DNA of 64,000 bases, taken from contig NC_081363.1 of assembly GCF_030684315.1 (NCBI RefSeq), positions 49,170,312-49,234,311 of the forward strand. The letters run 5' to 3'. Positions 30,201-53,075 of the stretch are shown in pieces; within the stretch, counting starts at the first letter, position 1, and the number at the start of each line of letters is the position of its first letter. The stretch comes from Stegostoma tigrinum (lineage: Eukaryota). The notes below the pieces were generated by a model. The model was not told where the DNA came from. It made no database searches and saw nothing but the letters and a program-made list of their open reading frames with translations. The translations under genes and the position numbers were made by a program.

Positions 30201-30400
30201 GATAGTAGGAACTGCTGATGCTGGAGTCTGAGGTAACAAGATGTAAAGCTGGATGAACACAGCAGGCCAGGCAGCATCAGAGGAGCAGGAAAGCTGACGT
30301 TTTAGGTCTGGAAGAAGGATCCAGACCCGAAACATCAGCTTTCCTGCTCTTCTAACGCTGCCTGGCCTGCAATGTTAATCCAGCTCTACACCTTGTTATC
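30201..30400. mobile_element. Palindromic Penelope-derived mini element
   Basis: Inverted arms and a core remnant gaagaaggatccagacccgaaacatc. TSD catgtgacact at 30186-30196 and 30400-30410. Confidence 0.8.
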
Positions 30401-41353: not shown

Positions 41354-41853
41354 AGAACATAGAACATAGAAAAGTACAGCACAGTACGGGCCCTTCGGCC
41401 CACGATGTTGTGCCGTGGAATAATCCTAATCCAAAAATAAAATAACCTAACCTACATTCCCCTCAATTCACTGCTGTCCTTGTGCATGTCCAGCAGTCGC
41501 TTAAATGTCACTAATGACTCCGCTTCCACGACTACCACTGGTAAACTATTCCATGCACTCACAACTCTCTGGGTGAAGAACCTCCCTCTGACGTCTCCTC
41601 TATACCTTCCTCCTAACACCTTAAAACTATGACCCCTCGTGGCAGTCAATCCTGCCCTGGGGAAAAGTCTCTGGCTATCAACTCTATCCATGCCTCTCAT
41701 TACCTTGTACACCTTGATCAGGTCACCTCTCTTCCTCCTTCTCTCCAGAGAGAAAAGTCCGAGCTCAGTCAACCTCTCCTCGTAAGACAAGCCCTCCAGT
41801 CCAGGCAGCATCCTGATAAGCCTCCTTTGCACGCTCTCCAAAGCCTCCACATC
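41354..41853 (-). mobile_element. Young CR1 LINE 3' end
   Basis: Open ORF 41452-41850 (ALESVQRR..LFSLERRR.RGDLI..RGHSFKV..FFTQRVV.AWNSLP) and a (CTATGTT)n tail. Confidence 0.95.
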
Positions 41854-45214: not shown

Positions 45215-46163
45215 AGCAAACTATTATAAAATTGGTGGCATTGTAGACAGGGAGGAAGATTTTCGGAGATTAAAATGGGATTTTGATCAAATGGATGAAT
45301 GAGCCGAAAAATGGCAGATGGAGTTCAATCTGGATAAATGCAGGGTATTGCATTTTGGTACGAGAAACAAGAGTAGGGCTTATACAATTAATGGTAGAGC
45401 CTTGGGTAGTGTTGTGCAACAGAAGGACCTGGGGTGCAGGTATATATTTCTTTAAAATTTGCATCACATATAGACAGGATGGTTAAAAAGGCATTTGGTA
45501 CACTTGCCTCCATTGCTCTGTCCTTTGAATATAGGAGTTGGGACATTCTTTTGAGGTTGTATGGGACATTGGTGAGGCCTCTTCTGGGGTACTGTGTGCA
45601 GTTCTGGTCGCCCAGTTATAGATTAGATTCCCTACAGAGTGGAAACAGGCACTTCGGCCCAACAAGTCCACCCCACCCCTTGAAGCATCCCACCCAGACC
45701 CATCCCCCTATAACCCATACGCCCCTGAACACTACGGCAATTTAGCATGGCCAATCCACCTACCCTGCACATCTTTGGACTGTGGGAGGAAACACGGAAC
45801 ACCTGGAAGAAACCCACACAGACACAGGGAGAATGTGCAAACTCCACACAGACAGTCGTCCGAGGCTGCAATTGAACCCGGGTCCCTGGAGCTGTGAGGC
45901 TGCAGTGCTAACCACTGAGCCACTGTGCTGCTCTTGGATGGATATTATCAAGCTGGGGAGGGGTCAGAAGAAATTTACCAGGATGTTGCCAGGTATAGAA
46001 GATTTGAGTTATAAAAGAAGGCTGGATACGCTGAGACTTCTTTCACTGAAGCATAGGAGGTTAAGATGACCTGATAGAAGTCCTTAAAATAATGAAAGGT
46101 ACAGATAGAGTCAATGGTAGTTGTCTTTACCCTAAAATCGGGTATTTAGAAACTGGATCCACA
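45215..46163 (+). mobile_element. CR1 LINE fragment split by an HE1 SINE and truncated at the Penelope/Tx1 complex
   Basis: LY.TLVRPLLGYCVQFWSPSY [SINE] DIIKL.R.QKKFTRMLPG..LSYK.RLD.L.LLSL. Confidence 0.88.
45621..45932 (-). mobile_element. HE1-type V-SINE
   Basis: Minus strand gtggctcagtggttagcactg...gggttcaattgc...gtggagtttgcacattctcc; same family as 12724. Confidence 0.9.
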
Positions 46164-46221
46164 TTCTGGATGTGAGTTTGCTCGCTGAGCTGGAAGGTTC
46201 GTTTTCAGACGTTTCGTCACC
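46164..46221 (-). mobile_element. Penelope element 3' terminal piece (downstream half of the interrupted hammerhead)
   Basis: Minus strand GGTGACGAAACGTCtgaaaacgaaccttccagctcagcgagcaaactcacatccagaa directly follows the Tx1 poly(A). Confidence 0.8.
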
Positions 46222-46499
46222 TTTTTTTTATTTGAAAAAATACACTTTATTCATAAGATGTACAAAAAATAAAACATATTTATGCACCTATCCAGTCATG
46301 CAAGCCGCTCTGGGTTACCCAGGGGGTATGTACACCAACTAAAAGGAAAAAAACAAACAAAGAAGAAAAAAAAGCAAAAAAAATACTCCGGCAGTCGTCT
46401 CCCCGCACAGTCCCAGTTGGCCCCCTGACCAGTTGGGGAAGGCGCCAGCTGGGCCCAGTTACCAGATAGGGCCCTTTTTTCTATTATGGACGAGGGGTT

Positions 46500-49400
46500 T
46501 CATACCGTGGTCTTTCCCCACCGCGCCTTGGCAGCGGCTGCCCCAAGTGTTAGCGCGTCCCTCAGCACGTAGTCCTGGACCTTGGAGTGCGCCAGTCTGC
46601 AACATTCGGTCGGGGTCAGTTCTTTAGCTGGCAGACCAGCAAGTGGCGGGCAGACCAAAGAGCGTCTTTCACCGCATTGATGGTCCTCCAGGCGCAGTTG
46701 ATGTTGGTCTCGGTGTGCGTCCCGGGAAACAGCCCATAGAGCACGGAGTCCCGCGTCACGGAGCTGCTCGGGACGAACCTCGACAAATACCACTGCATCC
46801 CCCTCCAGACCTCCTGTGCATAGGCACACTCCAGAAGGAGGTGATCAACAGTCTCGTCCCCCCCGCAGCCACCTCGAGGGCAGCGTGCGGTGGCCCAGAG
46901 ATTCCGGGCATGCATAAAGGATCTCACTGGCAGAGCCCCTCTCACCGCCAGCCAAGCAATGTCCTTGTGCTTGTTTGAAAGTTCTGGCGATGAGGCATTC
47001 TGCCAAATGACTTTGGCAGTCTGTGTGGGGAACCACACGACGGGATCCACCCTCTCCTTTCCCCAAAGGGTCCCGAGGATACTACGTGCTGACCACTGCC
47101 TGACAGCCTTGTGGTCAAAAGGTGTTGCCTTTCAAAAATTTCTCCACGAAGGACAGGTGGTACGGAATGGTCCAACTACTCGGAGCGTTCCGCGGCAACG
47201 AGGCCAGGCCCATCCTTCGCAACACCGGGGACAGGTAGAACCTCAGTAAGTAGTGACACTTGGTGTTTGCGTACTGAGGATCTACGCACAGCTTGATGCA
47301 GCCGCACACAAAGGTAGCCATCAGGGCGAGGGTGGCGTTCGGTATGCCCTTTCCCCCATTTTCCAGGTCTTTGTACATGGTGTCCCTGCGGACCCGGTCC
47401 ATCCTCGACCCCCAAATGAAGTGGAAGATGGCCCGGGTGACCGCAGCGGCGCAGGTCCAGGGAATAGGCCAGGCCTGCGCCACATACAATAGTACCGAAA
47501 GCCCCTCGCACCTGACAACCAGGTTCTTACCCGCGATGGAGAGGGACTGCAGCGTCCAGCTGCCCAGCTTCTGCTTCAATTTGGTGAGATGCTCCTCCCA
47601 AGTCTTAGTGCACGTCCCGGCTCCACCGAACCAAACACCCAGCACCTTCAGGTAGTCTGTCCTGACGGTGAAGGGGATGAAGGAGCGGTCGTCCCAGTTC
47701 CCGAAGAACGTGACCTCGCTCTTACCCCTATTGACTTTGGCACCCGAGGCCAGTTCAAACTGGCCGCAGATGTCCAACAGCCTACTCACCGACCGACGAT
47801 CGGTGCAGAAGACGGCGACGTCGTCCATGTACAGGGAGGTCTTGACCTGAAGGCCTCCGCTGCCTGGGATAGTCACGCCCTTCAGGCTCACATCCTTCCT
47901 GATGGATGCGGCAAAGGGCTCCACACAGCACATGAACAAGGCAGGAGAGAGCGGGCAGCCCTGCCTGACTCCAGATCCGACAGGAAAACTGTCCGATTCC
48001 CACCCGATGATCGAGACTGCGCAAACAATGTTGGTGTAGACCAGCCGGATCCAATTGCGGATGACCTCCCCGAACCCCAATTTGGAGAGGACGTCCCTCA
48101 TGTAAGCATGAAAGACCCTGTCGAAGGCCTTCTCCTGGTCCAGGCTGACGAGGCAGGTGTTCACCCGCCTGTCCTGTACGTAGGCGATCGTATCCCTGAT
48201 GAGCGCGAAGCTCTCAGCGATCTTCCTGCTCGGCACAGCACAGGTTTGGTCAGGGTGAATCACTGACTCCAGGACAGACCTGACCCGGTTGGCTATGACC
48301 TTGGCCAGGATTTTGTAGCCCACGTTCAATAGTGAAATGGGACGCCAATTCTTAATTTCTTCCCTCTCCCCCTTCCTCTTGTAAAGGAGGGTGATGATGC
48401 CCTTCCTCATGGACTTGCACATTTCCCCTGCCTGAAGCGCACTATCGTACACCTCCAGCAGGTCCTGGCCGACCAGGTCCCACAGAGCGGAATATAGCTT
48501 GACCGGTAAGCCGTCGCTCCTGGGAGTCCTATTCCTCTCCAAGGACTTGAGGGCTCTGGTCAACTCGTCCAGGGATATCGGTCAGTCCAGCCACTCCCTC
48601 GTGCTGTTGTCTAAGACCTCCGTGATAGACGACAGGAACGACTCGGAGGCCGTGCTGTCCGTGGGCTTCGTGTCGTACAGTCCGGCATAGAAGGACCTGC
48701 TGATCCTCAAAATGTCGGGCCGAAACGACGTCACCGAGCCGTCGTCCTCCTTCAGCCGGCTAAGCACAGAGCTCTCTTTGTGCACCTTCTGAAAGAAGAA
48801 GCACGAGCACGTCTTGTCCTGCTCCACGGAGCGGACCCTGGACCGGAAGATTATCCTGGAGGCCTCCGCAGCGAAGAGCGAGGCTTGCTGGCCCCTCACC
48901 TCACAGAGGTCCTCCGTGACATCGACCCCCATCAACTGCAGAAGGAGCAGGTTCTGCACCCTTTTCTGGAGTCGCGACAGCTTTCCCCGGCTCTCTCTCG
49001 CCTTCCGAACACCCTTGAAGACAAAGAACCTCTTGATGTTCTCCTTCACCGTCTCCCACCAGTCGCCTGGAGACTCAAAGAGGGGTTTCACGGTTCTCCA
49101 ACCGGCGTACACCCTCTTAAGCTCCTCGACGTTCTCTGGGGTCAACAGAGTCGTGTTGAGCTTCCACGTCCCCTTGCCGGCCGGCTGGTCATCCTGTAAG
49201 TGACAGTCGGCCAGCAGGAAGCAGTGGTCAGAGAAGATCAGCGGCTGGACGCCGTGGACCTGACTGAGAACGTCCGTGACACAAACAGGAAGTCTATCCT
49301 TGAGCGAATAGACCCGTCTGGTCGCGACCAGGTGTACCTCCGCTGCGCTCCGTCTGCAGGGGTGCTGAAGACGTCGAGCAGCTTGGCATCCTTCAGCGTG

Positions 49401-49908
49401 CCGATCAGGAATCTGGACGTGATGTCCAGTTGACTCCCCCCCGCACCCGCTGTCCCCATGCCGGATCTTGAAGTTGAAGTCTCCGCCTAGGATGACCGGC
49501 CTGGACGTAGCCAGCAGGGGTGGAAGCCGCTGCAGGACGGCTAACCGCTCACTCCGTACCGCTGGGGCGTACACGTTGATCAGCCTCAGGGGAGCGTTCC
49601 TGTAGGTGACATTAGCCACTAGGAGGCGCCCCCCCCCCCACCACCTCCTGAACTTGAGAGATGGTGAAGTTGTGCCCCCGCAGCAGAATAGCCAGGCCCG
49701 AGAAGCGACAGTCGTTATCCCCCAACCAGATCGAAGGCCCACAGGTCCAGGCGCCGGACCATTTTCCGTACCTGCCGAGGTACGGTATCACGCACTCCTA
49801 CAGAAACAGGAGGTCCGCCTTGATGGTGGTCAGGTAGGCCAACGTGGATACACATCTCGCGGTGGACCTGACGCTGCGCACATTAATGCTCACAACTCGT
49901 ACCCCCAT
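46500..49908 (-). pseudogene. Tx1 ORF2 (APE endonuclease, reverse transcriptase, C-terminal zinc finger), disrupted
   Basis: ATG at 49908, MGVRVVSINVR..LLFL*EC; INVYAP, LGGDFN, SRIDF, SDH; NWRPISLLN, LDQEKAFDRV, GVRQGCPLSP, YMDD; CPRGGCGGDETVDHLLLEC. Several frameshifts and stops. Confidence 0.92.
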
Positions 49909-51358
49909 TGTGGGCAGTGACCGCAGTACCCTCCCCGAGTCCAAGGTCCAGCCCCTCCATCTGTCCCTTCATGCCTGTTTCCCGGGCTAACTGCTGGACG
50001 CTCTCCGGGCTCAGGAAACCGTCTGTGCTGCCTTCCGGGTGGCATCCCTCCGTCGGGGGTAAGGAGGCAGGAGAGTCCGGCTCTGGGTCAGGCTGGGGAC
50101 ACACTGTTTCCTCCTTCCCACCTGGAAGTTCTGGGGGGCCCTCCAGTGCCCCAGCAGCACTTGACTGGGTGTCGGCAGGAGCCTCAGGACACCTCCCGTC
50201 ACCTGGAAGCGGGGTGCTGCTTTCCTTCTCCCTTGAGATCATTAACTTCTGCTTCGGGCGGGACATCTCCAAATCCCCCTCGTCAGAGGAGCTCTTATAG
50301 CCCCCCTGTAGCTGCCTCTTCCTGCCTGATGGTTGCGGTTCCTGGGCCCACCAACGCACCTTCCTCCTCGCTTTCCGGACCGTCGTCCACTCCCCTGGGT
50401 CGCCTGTCGCCGCCTCCATCGACTCCGGGTTGTCGGGGTGGGGGGGAGCGGAGCCTGCAGGGGCGCTTTGCTGGCCTCGGGCCCATCCTGTGGGGCTGGG
50501 CCCTCCTGCACGACCTGGCCCTCCTGCTCATTAGTGGGGTCCCTGCTGGGCTCTGGTGCCTTCCTCTCCTCCGGGGGGGCTGGCCCTGCATTGCCCCTGC
50601 CGGCGACCTGGGCGTAGGTGGTCCCCCGCCGCGAGCATGCCCTATAGAGGTGGCCCGCTTCCCCGCAAAGGTTGCAGCTTTTCTCTTGTGGGCAATCCTT
50701 TGCAAGGTGTCCCTCCTCCCCGCAGTTCCTGTAGATGGTGGCTTTGCAGTCGGCCGCCACGTGACCTGACCTACCGCAGGCATGGCAGACTTTAGGTTGC
50801 CCTGCATAGGTCAGGTAGCCCTTGCTCCCGCCGATCGCGAAGCTGGACAGTGGGTGTACGACGTTCCCGTCCGCGCCCATCCTCAGCGTCACCTTGACCT
50901 GCCTCTTACTGGTCCAGATGCCAAAGGGGTCCCCATGATGTCAGTTAGGTCCCCTTCCACCTTTATGTACCTTCCAAGGAAGGTCAGGACATCAACTGCT
51001 GCTGGCACATGCGGGTTGTACTGTGTACAGTCACCATACGGCTCCTCTGTGCTGGCATCACAAACAGCGGGACAGCGGTCAATACAGAGAGGGGGCTCTC
51101 ACCTCCTTTCTCCTTGGAAACCTCCAGGAAGCGCTCGCAAAGCTTGGCATGCCTGAAGGTCACATCGTAAAAACCTCCTCCGGGGAAATCCTGCAGGCAG
51201 TAAATGTCCGCAGCAGCGAACCCACAACAGTCCAACAGGACCCTCTTCACGAAGAGGACGCGGCCCACAGGTGCACCTTCATCCACCTTCTTCGGGGAAA
51301 CACAGATGGTGTTCCGGACCCCCTGACCTGGGGCACGAGCACTTGCCACAGCCATCAT
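49883..51358 (-). pseudogene. Tx1 ORF1 (ZCCHC3-like gag with three CCHC knuckles), frameshifted
   Basis: MMAVASARAPGQGVRNT..IYCLQDFPGGGFYDVTF; YAGQPKVCHACGRSGHVAADC, (Y)RNCGEEGHLAKDC, CNLCGEAGHLYRAC; low-complexity C-terminus. Confidence 0.88.
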
Positions 51359-51544
51359 TGCAAGTTGGCTGCTCCCCTGATCCAGCGTTAGGCCGAAGCC
51401 AGCATTAAGATCCACCGGTTGCAAGGTTGCACAGCCAACCCGACATCTTCCTTTCACCTCCAACACAGCGCTCTCCTCCTCTTGGTTCACAAGAGAGTGG
51501 GTCTTTATTTTGTTCCAGATGTAAGCTGGTTCACTGAGCTTGAA

Positions 51545-51600
51545 GGTTTGTTCCCAGACATTTCATCACCATTCTAGGTAACATCAACAGTGAGCCTCCG
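51545..51600 (-). ncRNA. Type I hammerhead ribozyme motif (mutated copy) spanning the Penelope/Tx1 5' junction
   Basis: ggaggcuca-CUGUUGA-U-GUUACC(uagaau)GGUGAU-GAAA-UGUC^ugggaacaaaccuuc. The other TSD copy preserves GGUGAC-GAAA-CGUC. One core substitution (CUGA to CUGU) and two CpG-type transitions. Confidence 0.7.
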
Positions 51601-51895
51601 ACGAAGCACCGGTGTTACGTCCGGCTTTCTATTTATCTGTTTAGGTTTCCTTGGGTTGGTGATGCATTGATGATGTCATTTCCTGTTCTATTCCTCAGGG
51701 GATGGTAGATTGGCTCCAAATCAATGTGCTTGTTGATGGAGTTCCGGTTGGAATGCCACGCTTCTAGGAATTCTCGTGCAGGTCTCTGTTTGGCTTGTCT
51801 TAGGATGGATGTGTTGTCCCAATCAAAGTGGTGTCCTTCCTCATCTGTATGTAAGGATACGAGTGATAGTGGGTCATGTCGTTTTGTGGCTATGA
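51555..51895 (-). mobile_element. Penelope-like element, GIY-YIG C-terminus and 3' UTR
   Basis: ORF 51633-51914 ATKRHDPLSLVSLHTDEEGHHFDWDNTSIL..K..AREFLEAWHS..SINKHIDL.PIY is the typical end of a Penelope endonuclease. Confidence 0.88.
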
Positions 51896-52377
51896 TGGAC
51901 ATGTAACTGTACACAAAATGTCATGACAGATATGACCTAAAGAAGCAAACAATAACTAACCAATGGAATGTAGAGCCAGTATGAAGGGTAACATTTATAA
52001 AAGAATCATTCAATAATGTGAAAGAAGTTTGCGTGTCGCCATAAAACAAGCTGGGACAAAAAGTACAGTGCTAGTGTAGAGGACTTTGCTAGCTGCCTAA
52101 GAGGTTACACCAACTTATTGGTTTGGATTTTCTGTAAATATTGAATGTGGAATGTCAGCCTTTACTGTTTTCTAGAGTAAATCAGATGCAACTGACCACT
52201 GAACATTTTTGCATTGGCCTCCTCCCAGACTAGAGCAGTAAGCAATACCAATATCTCACGTCTCACAGTTACAGAAAGAGGTAACTGTTACACTTTTGTC
52301 CAGGGAGGGGAAAACCCTCTTTTCAAAGTGAAGCTGGCAAAGTATACATGTGGTTACATCAACCTTACAGACATTCT

Positions 52378-53075
52378 TGTGACGTAGGGTGACGATACTA
52401 TGCCTTTAAAAGGTGTATTTTGTCCTGTTTATTTCAAAAGAATTCTTGAGCCAGAGATGTTGAGCTGTCTCTTCCAAGCCAATAAAATAAACAGCGTGAG
52501 AGCCTCTGGGATCTTTTTAAAAAGTTAAAGCAATAGAAGCAGCATGAATCGGTAGAGTCAGGCTTCCACACAACCAAGGTTTTAGTTTAGTTTTCAGTTG
52601 TTGGGGTTTTGAAGTTCTTTGTGGAAGTTGCTGTACATCTCTCTTGGTTACAACAAAAAGCTTGTGTTTTCTCTCTCTCTTTCTCTTTCTGACTCCGTGA
52701 GAATTTTCTCTTGGAGAAACAATGCATGTGAGACAATCTATTTTGCTGAAATTGCCCTTGCCATGGGTGTTGCTATGGGATGTTACTTGAACAGTTGCTG
52801 TTTTGCAGTTAAATAATCTGTTATTCTGTTAAGTTTTCTAGTAGAGTTAAATTAGGCCTGAAATGTCAGCTTTCCTGCTCGTACTGCTGTGCTCATCCAG
52901 CTCCACACCTTGTTATCACCAATTCTTCTTTATTTTGTTTGTATTTTAATTGGGTGTTAGAATAAAGTTTGTTTTGCTGAGAAGTGTGACAAATTGAATT
53001 GCATCTGGAACACACAGCACCTTATACTTGCCTTTAAATAAGATAAAATTTAGGGTGTTAGCCGCACAAAGATAC
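52378..53075 (+). mobile_element. Probable solo LTR, with a small PLE fragment inserted at ~52855-52920
   Basis: Begins TGTGAC, contains a CT-rich tract and AATAAA (~52960); no internal domain adjacent. Confidence 0.45.

Follow-up and report, generated by a model that had tools for sequence, protein, structure and literature searches.

A Tx1-type LINE family of Stegostoma tigrinum with a fixed insertion site in a Penelope hammerhead, probably also recopied by its host element

We analyzed a 64,000-nucleotide stretch of the Stegostoma tigrinum genome (NCBI RefSeq assembly GCF_030684315.1, contig NC_081363.1, positions 49,170,312 to 49,234,311 of the forward strand; hereafter the window), in which a long interspersed nuclear element (LINE) of the Tx1 type interrupts a Penelope-like retroelement within its hammerhead ribozyme. 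The best explanation, in which we place considerable confidence, is that this is a decayed copy of a young, high-copy LINE family which inserts at a fixed base of the Penelope hammerhead, likely by target-primed reverse transcription (TPRT) with its own endonuclease, and that the resulting composite is likely also recopied by the Penelope enzyme. A sequence-only reading of this DNA had proposed, from this one locus, that the family targets the ribozyme of another retroelement. As a whole that interpretation is partly supported, and its inference holds with two corrections: the element carries a target-derived leader of its own, and the flanks sometimes travel with it.

Nearly all sampled 3' ends of the family adjoin one base of the Penelope hammerhead

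Copies were counted with a 27-mer from the 3' end of the Tx1 element that stops before the flank (control: 0 matches), and exact matches in the genome put the family at 2,080 copies at least. We then examined the first 100 listed 3' ends (position-ordered, all on one contig, exact 27-mer match required), and 97 of them adjoin the same base of the Penelope minimal hammerhead. The Penelope tail follows in 88 cases and, in nine tandem arrangements that keep the same register, the leader of another Tx1 copy; unrelated flanks, which in the sequence-only reading would have marked a chance insertion, were found at three ends. Labels of three junctions, those of L242 and L264 (off target) and of L153 (on target), were set by reading the junctions (L numbers denote individual loci). 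The 30 best matches to the 3' end were all on target, and the 30 best matches to the 5' part all had the leader. The insertion register varies by 1 nt (90 versus 42 of 132 ends).

The target was also approached from its own side. Six A followed by the target occur in 367 places, and all 30 of those fetched belong to the Tx1 family, while the exact empty site occurs 7,523 times in the genome. Two site patterns gave 982 and 13,618 matches, filled in 83 and 8, respectively, of the first 100 rows of each; extrapolated from these rows, occupancy is about 13%, or about 1,900 of about 14,600 pattern-matching sites in 3.2 Gb. Because 97 of 100 copies stand at a site with this number of matches in a genome of this size, the sharing of the site is far beyond chance. 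Together with the tests of selection, age and sister arms given below, these counts bear out the specificity proposed from the single locus, and we regard site-specific, autonomous insertion into the Penelope hammerhead region as strongly supported by the genomic evidence.

The sequence-only reading inferred that the endonuclease targets the conserved ribozyme. However, tandem junctions keep their register even on a leader without the GAAAC core (L063/L123), so that the core is at best a candidate for what the enzyme reads. The junctions rather point to recognition of the loop II/stem II DNA; tandems may also come from recombination.

Organization of the window copy

On the minus strand the locus reads unique DNA, a Penelope-like fragment (51905-51571), the LINE (51570-46222), a Penelope tail (46221-46164) and again unique DNA, the Penelope flank and the LINE being co-oriented. 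The LINE is 5.35 kb long and ends in eight A, behind which 58 nt of Penelope tail follow. Its parts are listed here, with the basis of each assignment.

51571..51905, minus strand: upstream host Penelope-like part (end of the GIY-YIG region, 3' untranslated region (UTR)/pseudo-long terminal repeat (pLTR)), 5'-truncated, single arm; blastn to natural Penelope copies L116 and L136, with reverse transcriptase (RT) and weak GIY-YIG Pfam matches on longer copies
51571..51594, minus strand: 5' half of the minimal hammerhead (5' strand of stem I, core, 5' strand of stem II, loop II); sequence reading and variant counts
51512..51570, minus strand: Tx1 5' leader, a family-specific diverged copy of the target (hammerhead 3' half and short tail) that holds the upstream 16-mer 51570-51555; junction comparison
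49883..51358, minus strand: open reading frame 1 (ORF1), two ZCCHC3-type RRM domains and CCHC knuckles, broken by frameshifts in the window copy; ORF reading, Pfam on the unbroken natural copy L127
46500..49908, minus strand: ORF2, APE endonuclease, RT and zf-RVT, broken by stops and frameshifts in the window copy; ORF reading, Pfam on L127
46230..46499, minus strand: Tx1 3' UTR; sequence comparison
46222..46229, minus strand: short A-tract; sequence reading
46164..46221, minus strand: downstream host Penelope, comprising the hammerhead 3' half (16-mer 46221-46206) and the Penelope tail in its short form, with which the Penelope reading frame starts; sequence comparison

Much of what had been read from the letters is confirmed here: the hammerhead 5' half at 51594-51571, the co-orientation of a Tx1-type element with a Penelope, and the two 16-mers on the minus strand (46221-46206 and 51570-51555), between which there are two C>T changes, both at CpG. 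The claim that the 16-mers form a 16-bp target-site duplication (TSD) stands only in part. Truncated copies of the family do show a true TSD of 14-16 bp, but the upstream 16-mer of the window copy is mostly inherited leader, and the likeness of the two junctions extends over about 60 nt, beyond the 16-bp repeat. The window copy has T at 51587 (hammerhead core position 6), where empty sites have A; by this Tx1-linked change its upstream hammerhead departs from the minimal scheme. Across the family the A-tract is 6-12 nt long with a mode of 8 (140 loci, of which 132 ends could be scored). Decay of the window copy shows in ORF1 and ORF2, which are in pieces, in 14 indels relative to L127 and in 1.9% private changes.

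Truncation, selection and age argue for repeated insertion by the LINE itself

Scars of TPRT, that is an A-tail, 5' truncation and a TSD, occur in the family both off and on target. L242 and L264 are off-target truncated A-tailed copies bounded by TSDs of 14-16 bp. On target, the truncated A-tailed copies L260 (the same as L192 and L211), L213 and L214 have a 14-bp TSD ending at GTC, and L295 has one of 16 bp; L213 has the same breakpoint as L260, and the two may represent a single event. Purifying selection on the ORFs is seen in the ratio of nonsynonymous to synonymous polymorphism (pN/pS) at non-CpG positions, which is 0.89 for singletons versus 0.34 for variants present in at least 10 of 97 full-length copies (Fisher p=2e-5), and the drop recurs in ORF1, the endonuclease and the RT separately (60 loci).

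The inserts and their hosts also differ in age. Tx1 copies of the youngest quartile have 0.49% private changes versus 1.49% in their Penelopes, and among 88 loci the host was older than the insert in 13 and younger in 1 (p<0.01). Of 97 loci, 38 have a two-armed host in which one arm is filled, and the arms of these hosts are co-templated (44/231 discordant versus a shuffled mean of 0.36; 3.25 versus 0.19 shared rare variants per kb). In these hosts T occupies position -17 in 16 filled arms and in 0 sister arms, and the youngest third of inserts, at 0.51%, have sister arms at 2.15%. There are also hosts whose two arms received their inserts at separate times (L253, 0.38 versus 1.85%; also L279 and L290). 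Tx1 haplotypes are strongly linked internally (23/55 tests).

Several points weigh against independent insertion as the general rule, beginning with the way in which the 100 ends were sampled. For Tx1 copies of the oldest quartile the host does not exceed the insert in age (host 1.90 versus insert 2.39%), and Tx1 haplotypes show slight linkage to flank variants (7/99 tests at p<0.05, 2 at p<0.005). Few copies pass the truncated-copy test of Kojima: among the 20 truncated on-target copies of the 100, the classic form of Penelope, TSD and Tx1 is found in one (L260), while 11 join an inverted arm, 2 the interior of a Penelope and 6 other DNA upstream; three of these last six are later interruptions and three are unexplained. 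Three patterns for broken sites, applied genome-wide, gave 23 loci with 3 clean truncated insertions, two of which share one breakpoint.

As a separate observation, L261 (5' junction), L250, L270 and L285 have Tx1 next to Penelope interior, with either the hammerhead 5' half or the Tx1 5' end missing; these junctions may be template jumps or deletions.

Full-length copies carry a target-derived leader

At their 5' end full-length copies carry a diverged, element-borne copy of the target of about 60 nt. A comparison of 66 filled with 76 empty sites revealed differences at fixed positions from -17 to +54, and no variant of the flank further upstream than -17 distinguished them at p<0.001. The -17 variant itself is present in about 43% of filled versus about 1% of empty sites, and at L033, L046 and L134 the crossover between leader and host lies at differing places. 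Because of these fixed differences, the -17 variant and the scattered crossovers, the upstream 16-mer of a full-length copy appears usually to be inherited rather than a fresh TSD. The 5' junction would be best explained by annealing of the cDNA to the target, by analogy with the model proposed for R2 (PMC3774820).

Two-armed composites point to recopying by Penelope

Two-armed inserts with differing tails are a signature of Penelope (PMC3846280), and among the 59 arm pairs whose outer TSD is at least 9, 58 combine a long and a short tail (some pairs are counted twice). When one arm is filled, its partner is filled too in 15 of 46 cases versus the occupancy of about 13% (p=5e-4). There are 33 distinct structures with Tx1 in both arms, after four duplicate rows were merged and L295, which has no overlap, was left out, and in 19 of them the rare variants common to both arms exceed 2 per kb; in 150 random pairs the mean was 0.10 and the maximum 1.98. 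Raw arm identity was dropped as a test of one event versus two, being 90-95% against a background of 92.9% in a star-like family, and was replaced by these shared rare variants. Variants shared by both arms at 21 loci are neutral (pN/pS 0.81, 3 stops, shared 1-nt indels), and the source was therefore a decayed copy. In L139, L150, L151, L180, L236 and L280 the fold lies inside Tx1, with tails of unequal length at both ends and unique flanks that are not duplicated, and these six together with L166 have one long and one short tail within an outer TSD of 11-16 bp.

The RT of Penelope-like elements (PLEs) starts inside the tail and extends both strands, with no ribozyme cleavage needed (PMC11167929), and PLEs mobilize passengers in trans (PMC3846280). 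For these reasons we consider recopying of the Penelope/Tx1 composite by the Penelope machinery to be the simplest reading of the structures, and a probable one. The concern of the sequence-only reading that Penelope-like flanks might travel with the element thus applies to a minority of copies (the 19 of 33 two-armed structures), so that hitchhiking and targeting both occur.

The strongest competing view is that every copy was inserted independently and Penelope copies nothing, so that both-arm structures would stem from two insertions, or from gene conversion together with deletion of the palindrome center. Long inverted repeats are prone to rearrangement, and in 14 of the 33 structures the arms are unrelated or weakly related, several of them differing in age; those of L236 are unrelated. 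Points of truncation are spread evenly along Tx1 and do not cluster near its 3' end, unlike those of short empty Penelopes (median 256 nt upstream), and no single-armed truncated composite with a TSD was found. L254 is moreover a duplication at the DNA level that includes its flank, and gene conversion from arm to arm, with central deletion of the palindrome, could be the source of shared variants; all of this counts against recopying. On the other hand, this view does not readily account for shared rare neutral variants in 19 of 33 structures, for inverted similarity that stops at two different tail ends beside unduplicated unique flanks, or for the excess of both-filled pairs, and trans-mobilization by PLEs has precedent (PMC3846280). 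We thus consider it unlikely, though a serious competitor, that targeting acts without any Penelope copying. Single-armed truncated copies in unique DNA had been candidates for Penelope-made copies and were rejected, three being later interruptions and none having a TSD longer than 7 nt.

The ribozyme is mostly broken in the copy carried upstream

If the TSD and the leader rebuilt a working hammerhead, Tx1 RNA could be freed from a Penelope co-transcript, much as R2 uses its hepatitis delta virus (HDV) ribozyme. In L211, L213 and L214 the TSD ends, on the top strand, at the GUC site, and an AA>GG change in the leader lengthens stem I from 3 to 4 pairs, as this view would have it. However, the upstream core is intact in only 6 of 97 full copies and broken in 91, the GAAAC-GUH stretch is kept upstream in 14/97 versus downstream in 58/88, and G>A at +11 is present in 51/66 filled versus 10/76 empty sites. 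Furthermore, variants upstream of the cleavage site are inherited, which requires uncleaved RNA, minimal hammerhead ribozymes (min-HHRs) need a dimer partner (PMC4209133), and the downstream copy is without its 5' half. Because the core is intact in so few copies, use of the ribozyme to free the RNA is argued against and read-through from the pLTR is argued for; the borrowing of a ribozyme seems to us highly improbable, and the overwritten version of the hammerhead is probably dead.

A proposed cycle of insertion and recopying

Least credible of all is that a Penelope::Tx1 chimera arose by a single chance insertion, or by a few, and was spread by Penelope only, its flank then being uninformative on targeting, for although two-armed inserts with a fold inside Tx1, Penelope tails and outer TSDs, the constant short A-tract, the Tx1-linked variants in the upstream flank and the paucity of classic truncated copies would fit it, it runs counter to purifying selection on the Tx1 ORFs, to independent truncation points with 14-16-bp TSDs and off-target copies bounded by TSDs, and to the lack, beyond -17, of any flank variant at p<0.001 between filled and empty sites, and it is largely refuted by young Tx1 in old hosts and by sister arms without the -17 variant.

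For targeted insertion combined with recopying we propose the following steps. The APE domain would nick the bottom strand at the border of loop II and stem II, and the top strand would be nicked 14-16 nt downstream, at or just past the ribozyme GUC; the TSDs of truncated copies match this in size and place. The cDNA would then anneal to the target via its leader of about 60 nt and overwrite the site up to -17, as in R2 with target-derived 5' ends, and it might be for this reason that most copies are full length. Transcription would enter Tx1 from the Penelope pLTR, and the upstream ribozyme, the core of which is broken in 91 of 97 copies, would not free the RNA. Finally, the Penelope RT, starting inside the tail that lies directly behind the A-tract, would copy Tx1 as a passenger and produce two-armed inserts, the fold point possibly falling inside Tx1.

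In a broader and more tentative version, to which we give slightly less than even chances, this would amount to a two-way parasitic loop between two unrelated retrotransposition machines. The LINE would insert precisely in front of the start signal of the Penelope RT, disable the host ribozyme in the very copy from which it is transcribed, and use the RT and GIY-YIG of its host as a further means of spread. What favors the site would then be the ride and the pLTR promoter rather than conservation of the ribozyme.

The LINE encodes Tx1-type proteins

In the unbroken natural copy L127, ORF1 has two ZCCHC3-type RNA recognition motif (RRM) domains and CCHC knuckles (Pfam PF23057, PF23058, PF00098), a combination that is a feature of Tx1-type ORF1. 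Its ORF2 has an N-terminal apurinic/apyrimidinic-type (APE) endonuclease, an RT and a C-terminal zinc-binding region, zf-RVT (PF03372, PF00078, PF13966), with the catalytic motifs present (N8, E38, Y112, D142/N144, D209, the H232 region and YMDD). The proteins closest to L127 ORF2 are amphibian LINE ORF2s, with 45-47% identity, and the RT shares 45% identity with a protein of zebrafish that bears the name 'transposon TX1 149 kDa'. A tree of RT sequences, built without rows labelled Tx1L, Keno or Koshi and without an L1 outgroup, placed it in a clade with amphibian proteins (100/99). A PDB sequence search with the endonuclease domain gave no relative at E<=0.001.

Haplotypes of 60 Tx1 copies (L121-L180) are mosaic among several subfamilies, which suggests frequent template switching or recombination between masters. 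The genome also holds older Tx1 relatives at 68-77% identity (L126:q1688-2010, a minus-strand locus; L338:q142-239).

The host Penelope and its hammerhead

In both of two longer host fragments, RT precedes GIY-YIG in one ORF (RVT_1, E=3e-10; GIY-YIG, E=0.005, which is below the Pfam curated cut-off). In L338, one of 30 loci, a frame from an ATG at stem II is open for 183 codons through the tail, and one further locus is broken at codon 17; a Penelope frame starting at the hammerhead is found likewise in PAc (PMC11167929).

Empty sites fit the scheme of the minimal type I hammerhead (PMC4209133), with CUGAnGA, an extra base before stem II, a 6-bp stem II, GAAA, a palindromic ACGU and a stem I of 3-4 bp, as well as G10.1-C11.1, palindromic 15.2-16.2 and NUH. 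Stem II is 98% paired (25 rows), and stem I has 3 pairs in the host versus 4 in the Tx1 leader. The covariation score was 0.067 versus 0.069 for shuffles, the rows being too alike to carry signal, and a search of Rfam returned no hammerhead family match in the window or in the empty site.

In L218, L226, L229, L232 and L169 a Penelope 3' end lies at, or at most 2 nt from, the hammerhead GUC and is followed by unrelated DNA; such copies are possibly copies of self-cleaved RNA. Arm pairs (L098/L099, L101/L102, L109/L110 and about 45 Tx1-filled loci) nearly always consist of one long tail (about 95 nt) and one short tail (about 57 nt), and these two-armed inserts have an outer TSD of 10-17 bp. 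The pairing implies that each strand consistently uses its own one of two RT start sites. Such a division was unseen in the in vitro work on PAc (PMC11167929), while a tail on one inverted pLTR is noted in PMC3846280.

Relation to known systems

Targeting of other transposons by Tx1 elements is already known. Tx1L of Xenopus laevis inserts into Tx1D, a non-autonomous piggyBac, and the crocodilian Tx1-Mar, Tx1-8_Crp/Tx1-4_AMi and Tx1-9_AMi insert into Mariner-N4_AMi, LTR elements and Harbinger (PMC4494074). The shark LINE resembles these as an APE-type two-ORF element found at set places in another transposon, often in tandem, and the same study also raised hitchhiking and tested it with truncated copies. 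It differs from them in its target, a Penelope-like retroelement entered at one base and in one orientation, in its target-derived leader of about 60 nt, and in that a share of its copies has apparently been recopied by the host element; for SINEU-3, in contrast, hitchhiking was rejected (PMC4494074).

With R2 elements that have target-derived 5' ends, especially earwig R2 with its 22 bp of downstream 28S at the 5' end, the shark LINE shares a 5' end in which a diverged copy of downstream target has become fixed, propagated junction variants, and uniform 5' junctions, which a 5' heteroduplex model explains by cDNA-target annealing (PMC3774820). However, R2 has a restriction-like endonuclease and its own active HDV ribozyme, whereas the shark LINE has an APE and the ribozyme of its host, mostly broken in the element's copy. 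The host in turn is like endonuclease-containing (EN+) PLEs (PAc/Poseidon, PMC11167929; Adineta Pen2a/Pen3a, PMC3846280; min-HHRs, PMC4209133) in having RT and GIY-YIG, a minimal hammerhead at the start of its ORF, two tail lengths and inverted arms with a TSD, and such elements can move passengers between pLTR sequences in trans (PMC3846280). Unlike the PLE passengers described in these sources, the shark passenger is an autonomous, site-specific LINE that repeatedly places itself before the tail.

In the literature searched we found no report of Tx1 targeting Penelope or a hammerhead; Repbase, Dfam and supplements lay outside that search and may hold such a family. A search by term in bioRxiv 10.64898/2026.07.22.740005 gave no mention of Tx1. 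Among the sequencing runs listed as matches, none was an RNA data set. One other organism has contigs that carry the leader and cross the 3' junction by 31 and 28 letters, less than the 31 on either side that were required; two further organisms gave related Tx1 and Penelope pieces, with no bridging contig among the matches listed, and a third gave none. We make no claim on other species.

With this family the known targets of Tx1 elements come to include a retroelement ribozyme. A single insertion reaction is here repeated in nature about two thousand times, and controls are at hand in each two-armed Penelope, as its sister arm records the target before insertion. The 5'-joining step of APE LINEs, which is poorly known, becomes measurable via the length of the overwritten tract. 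In the opposite direction, the Tx1 passenger, with diagnostic variants over 5 kb, reports whether a single RNA source gave rise to both Penelope arms, which bears on an open step of PLE integration. For the engineering of site-specific LINEs, use could be made of an APE enzyme that has a single-base preference for a site of about 30 nt.

Other features of the window

Just downstream of the locus, a tRNA-headed short interspersed nuclear element (SINE) lies at 45630-45935 (minus strand) inside a CR1/L2-type LINE fragment (41452-41853, 45410-46069); we take it to resemble shark HE1. At 30247-30385 there is a long imperfect hairpin with sub-threshold matches to Rfam microRNA families. The hairpin, which is similar to a fragment at about 52850-52900 and holds a GAAAC-GUC-like stretch, is therefore probably what remains of a two-armed insert of a second Penelope-like family and not a microRNA.

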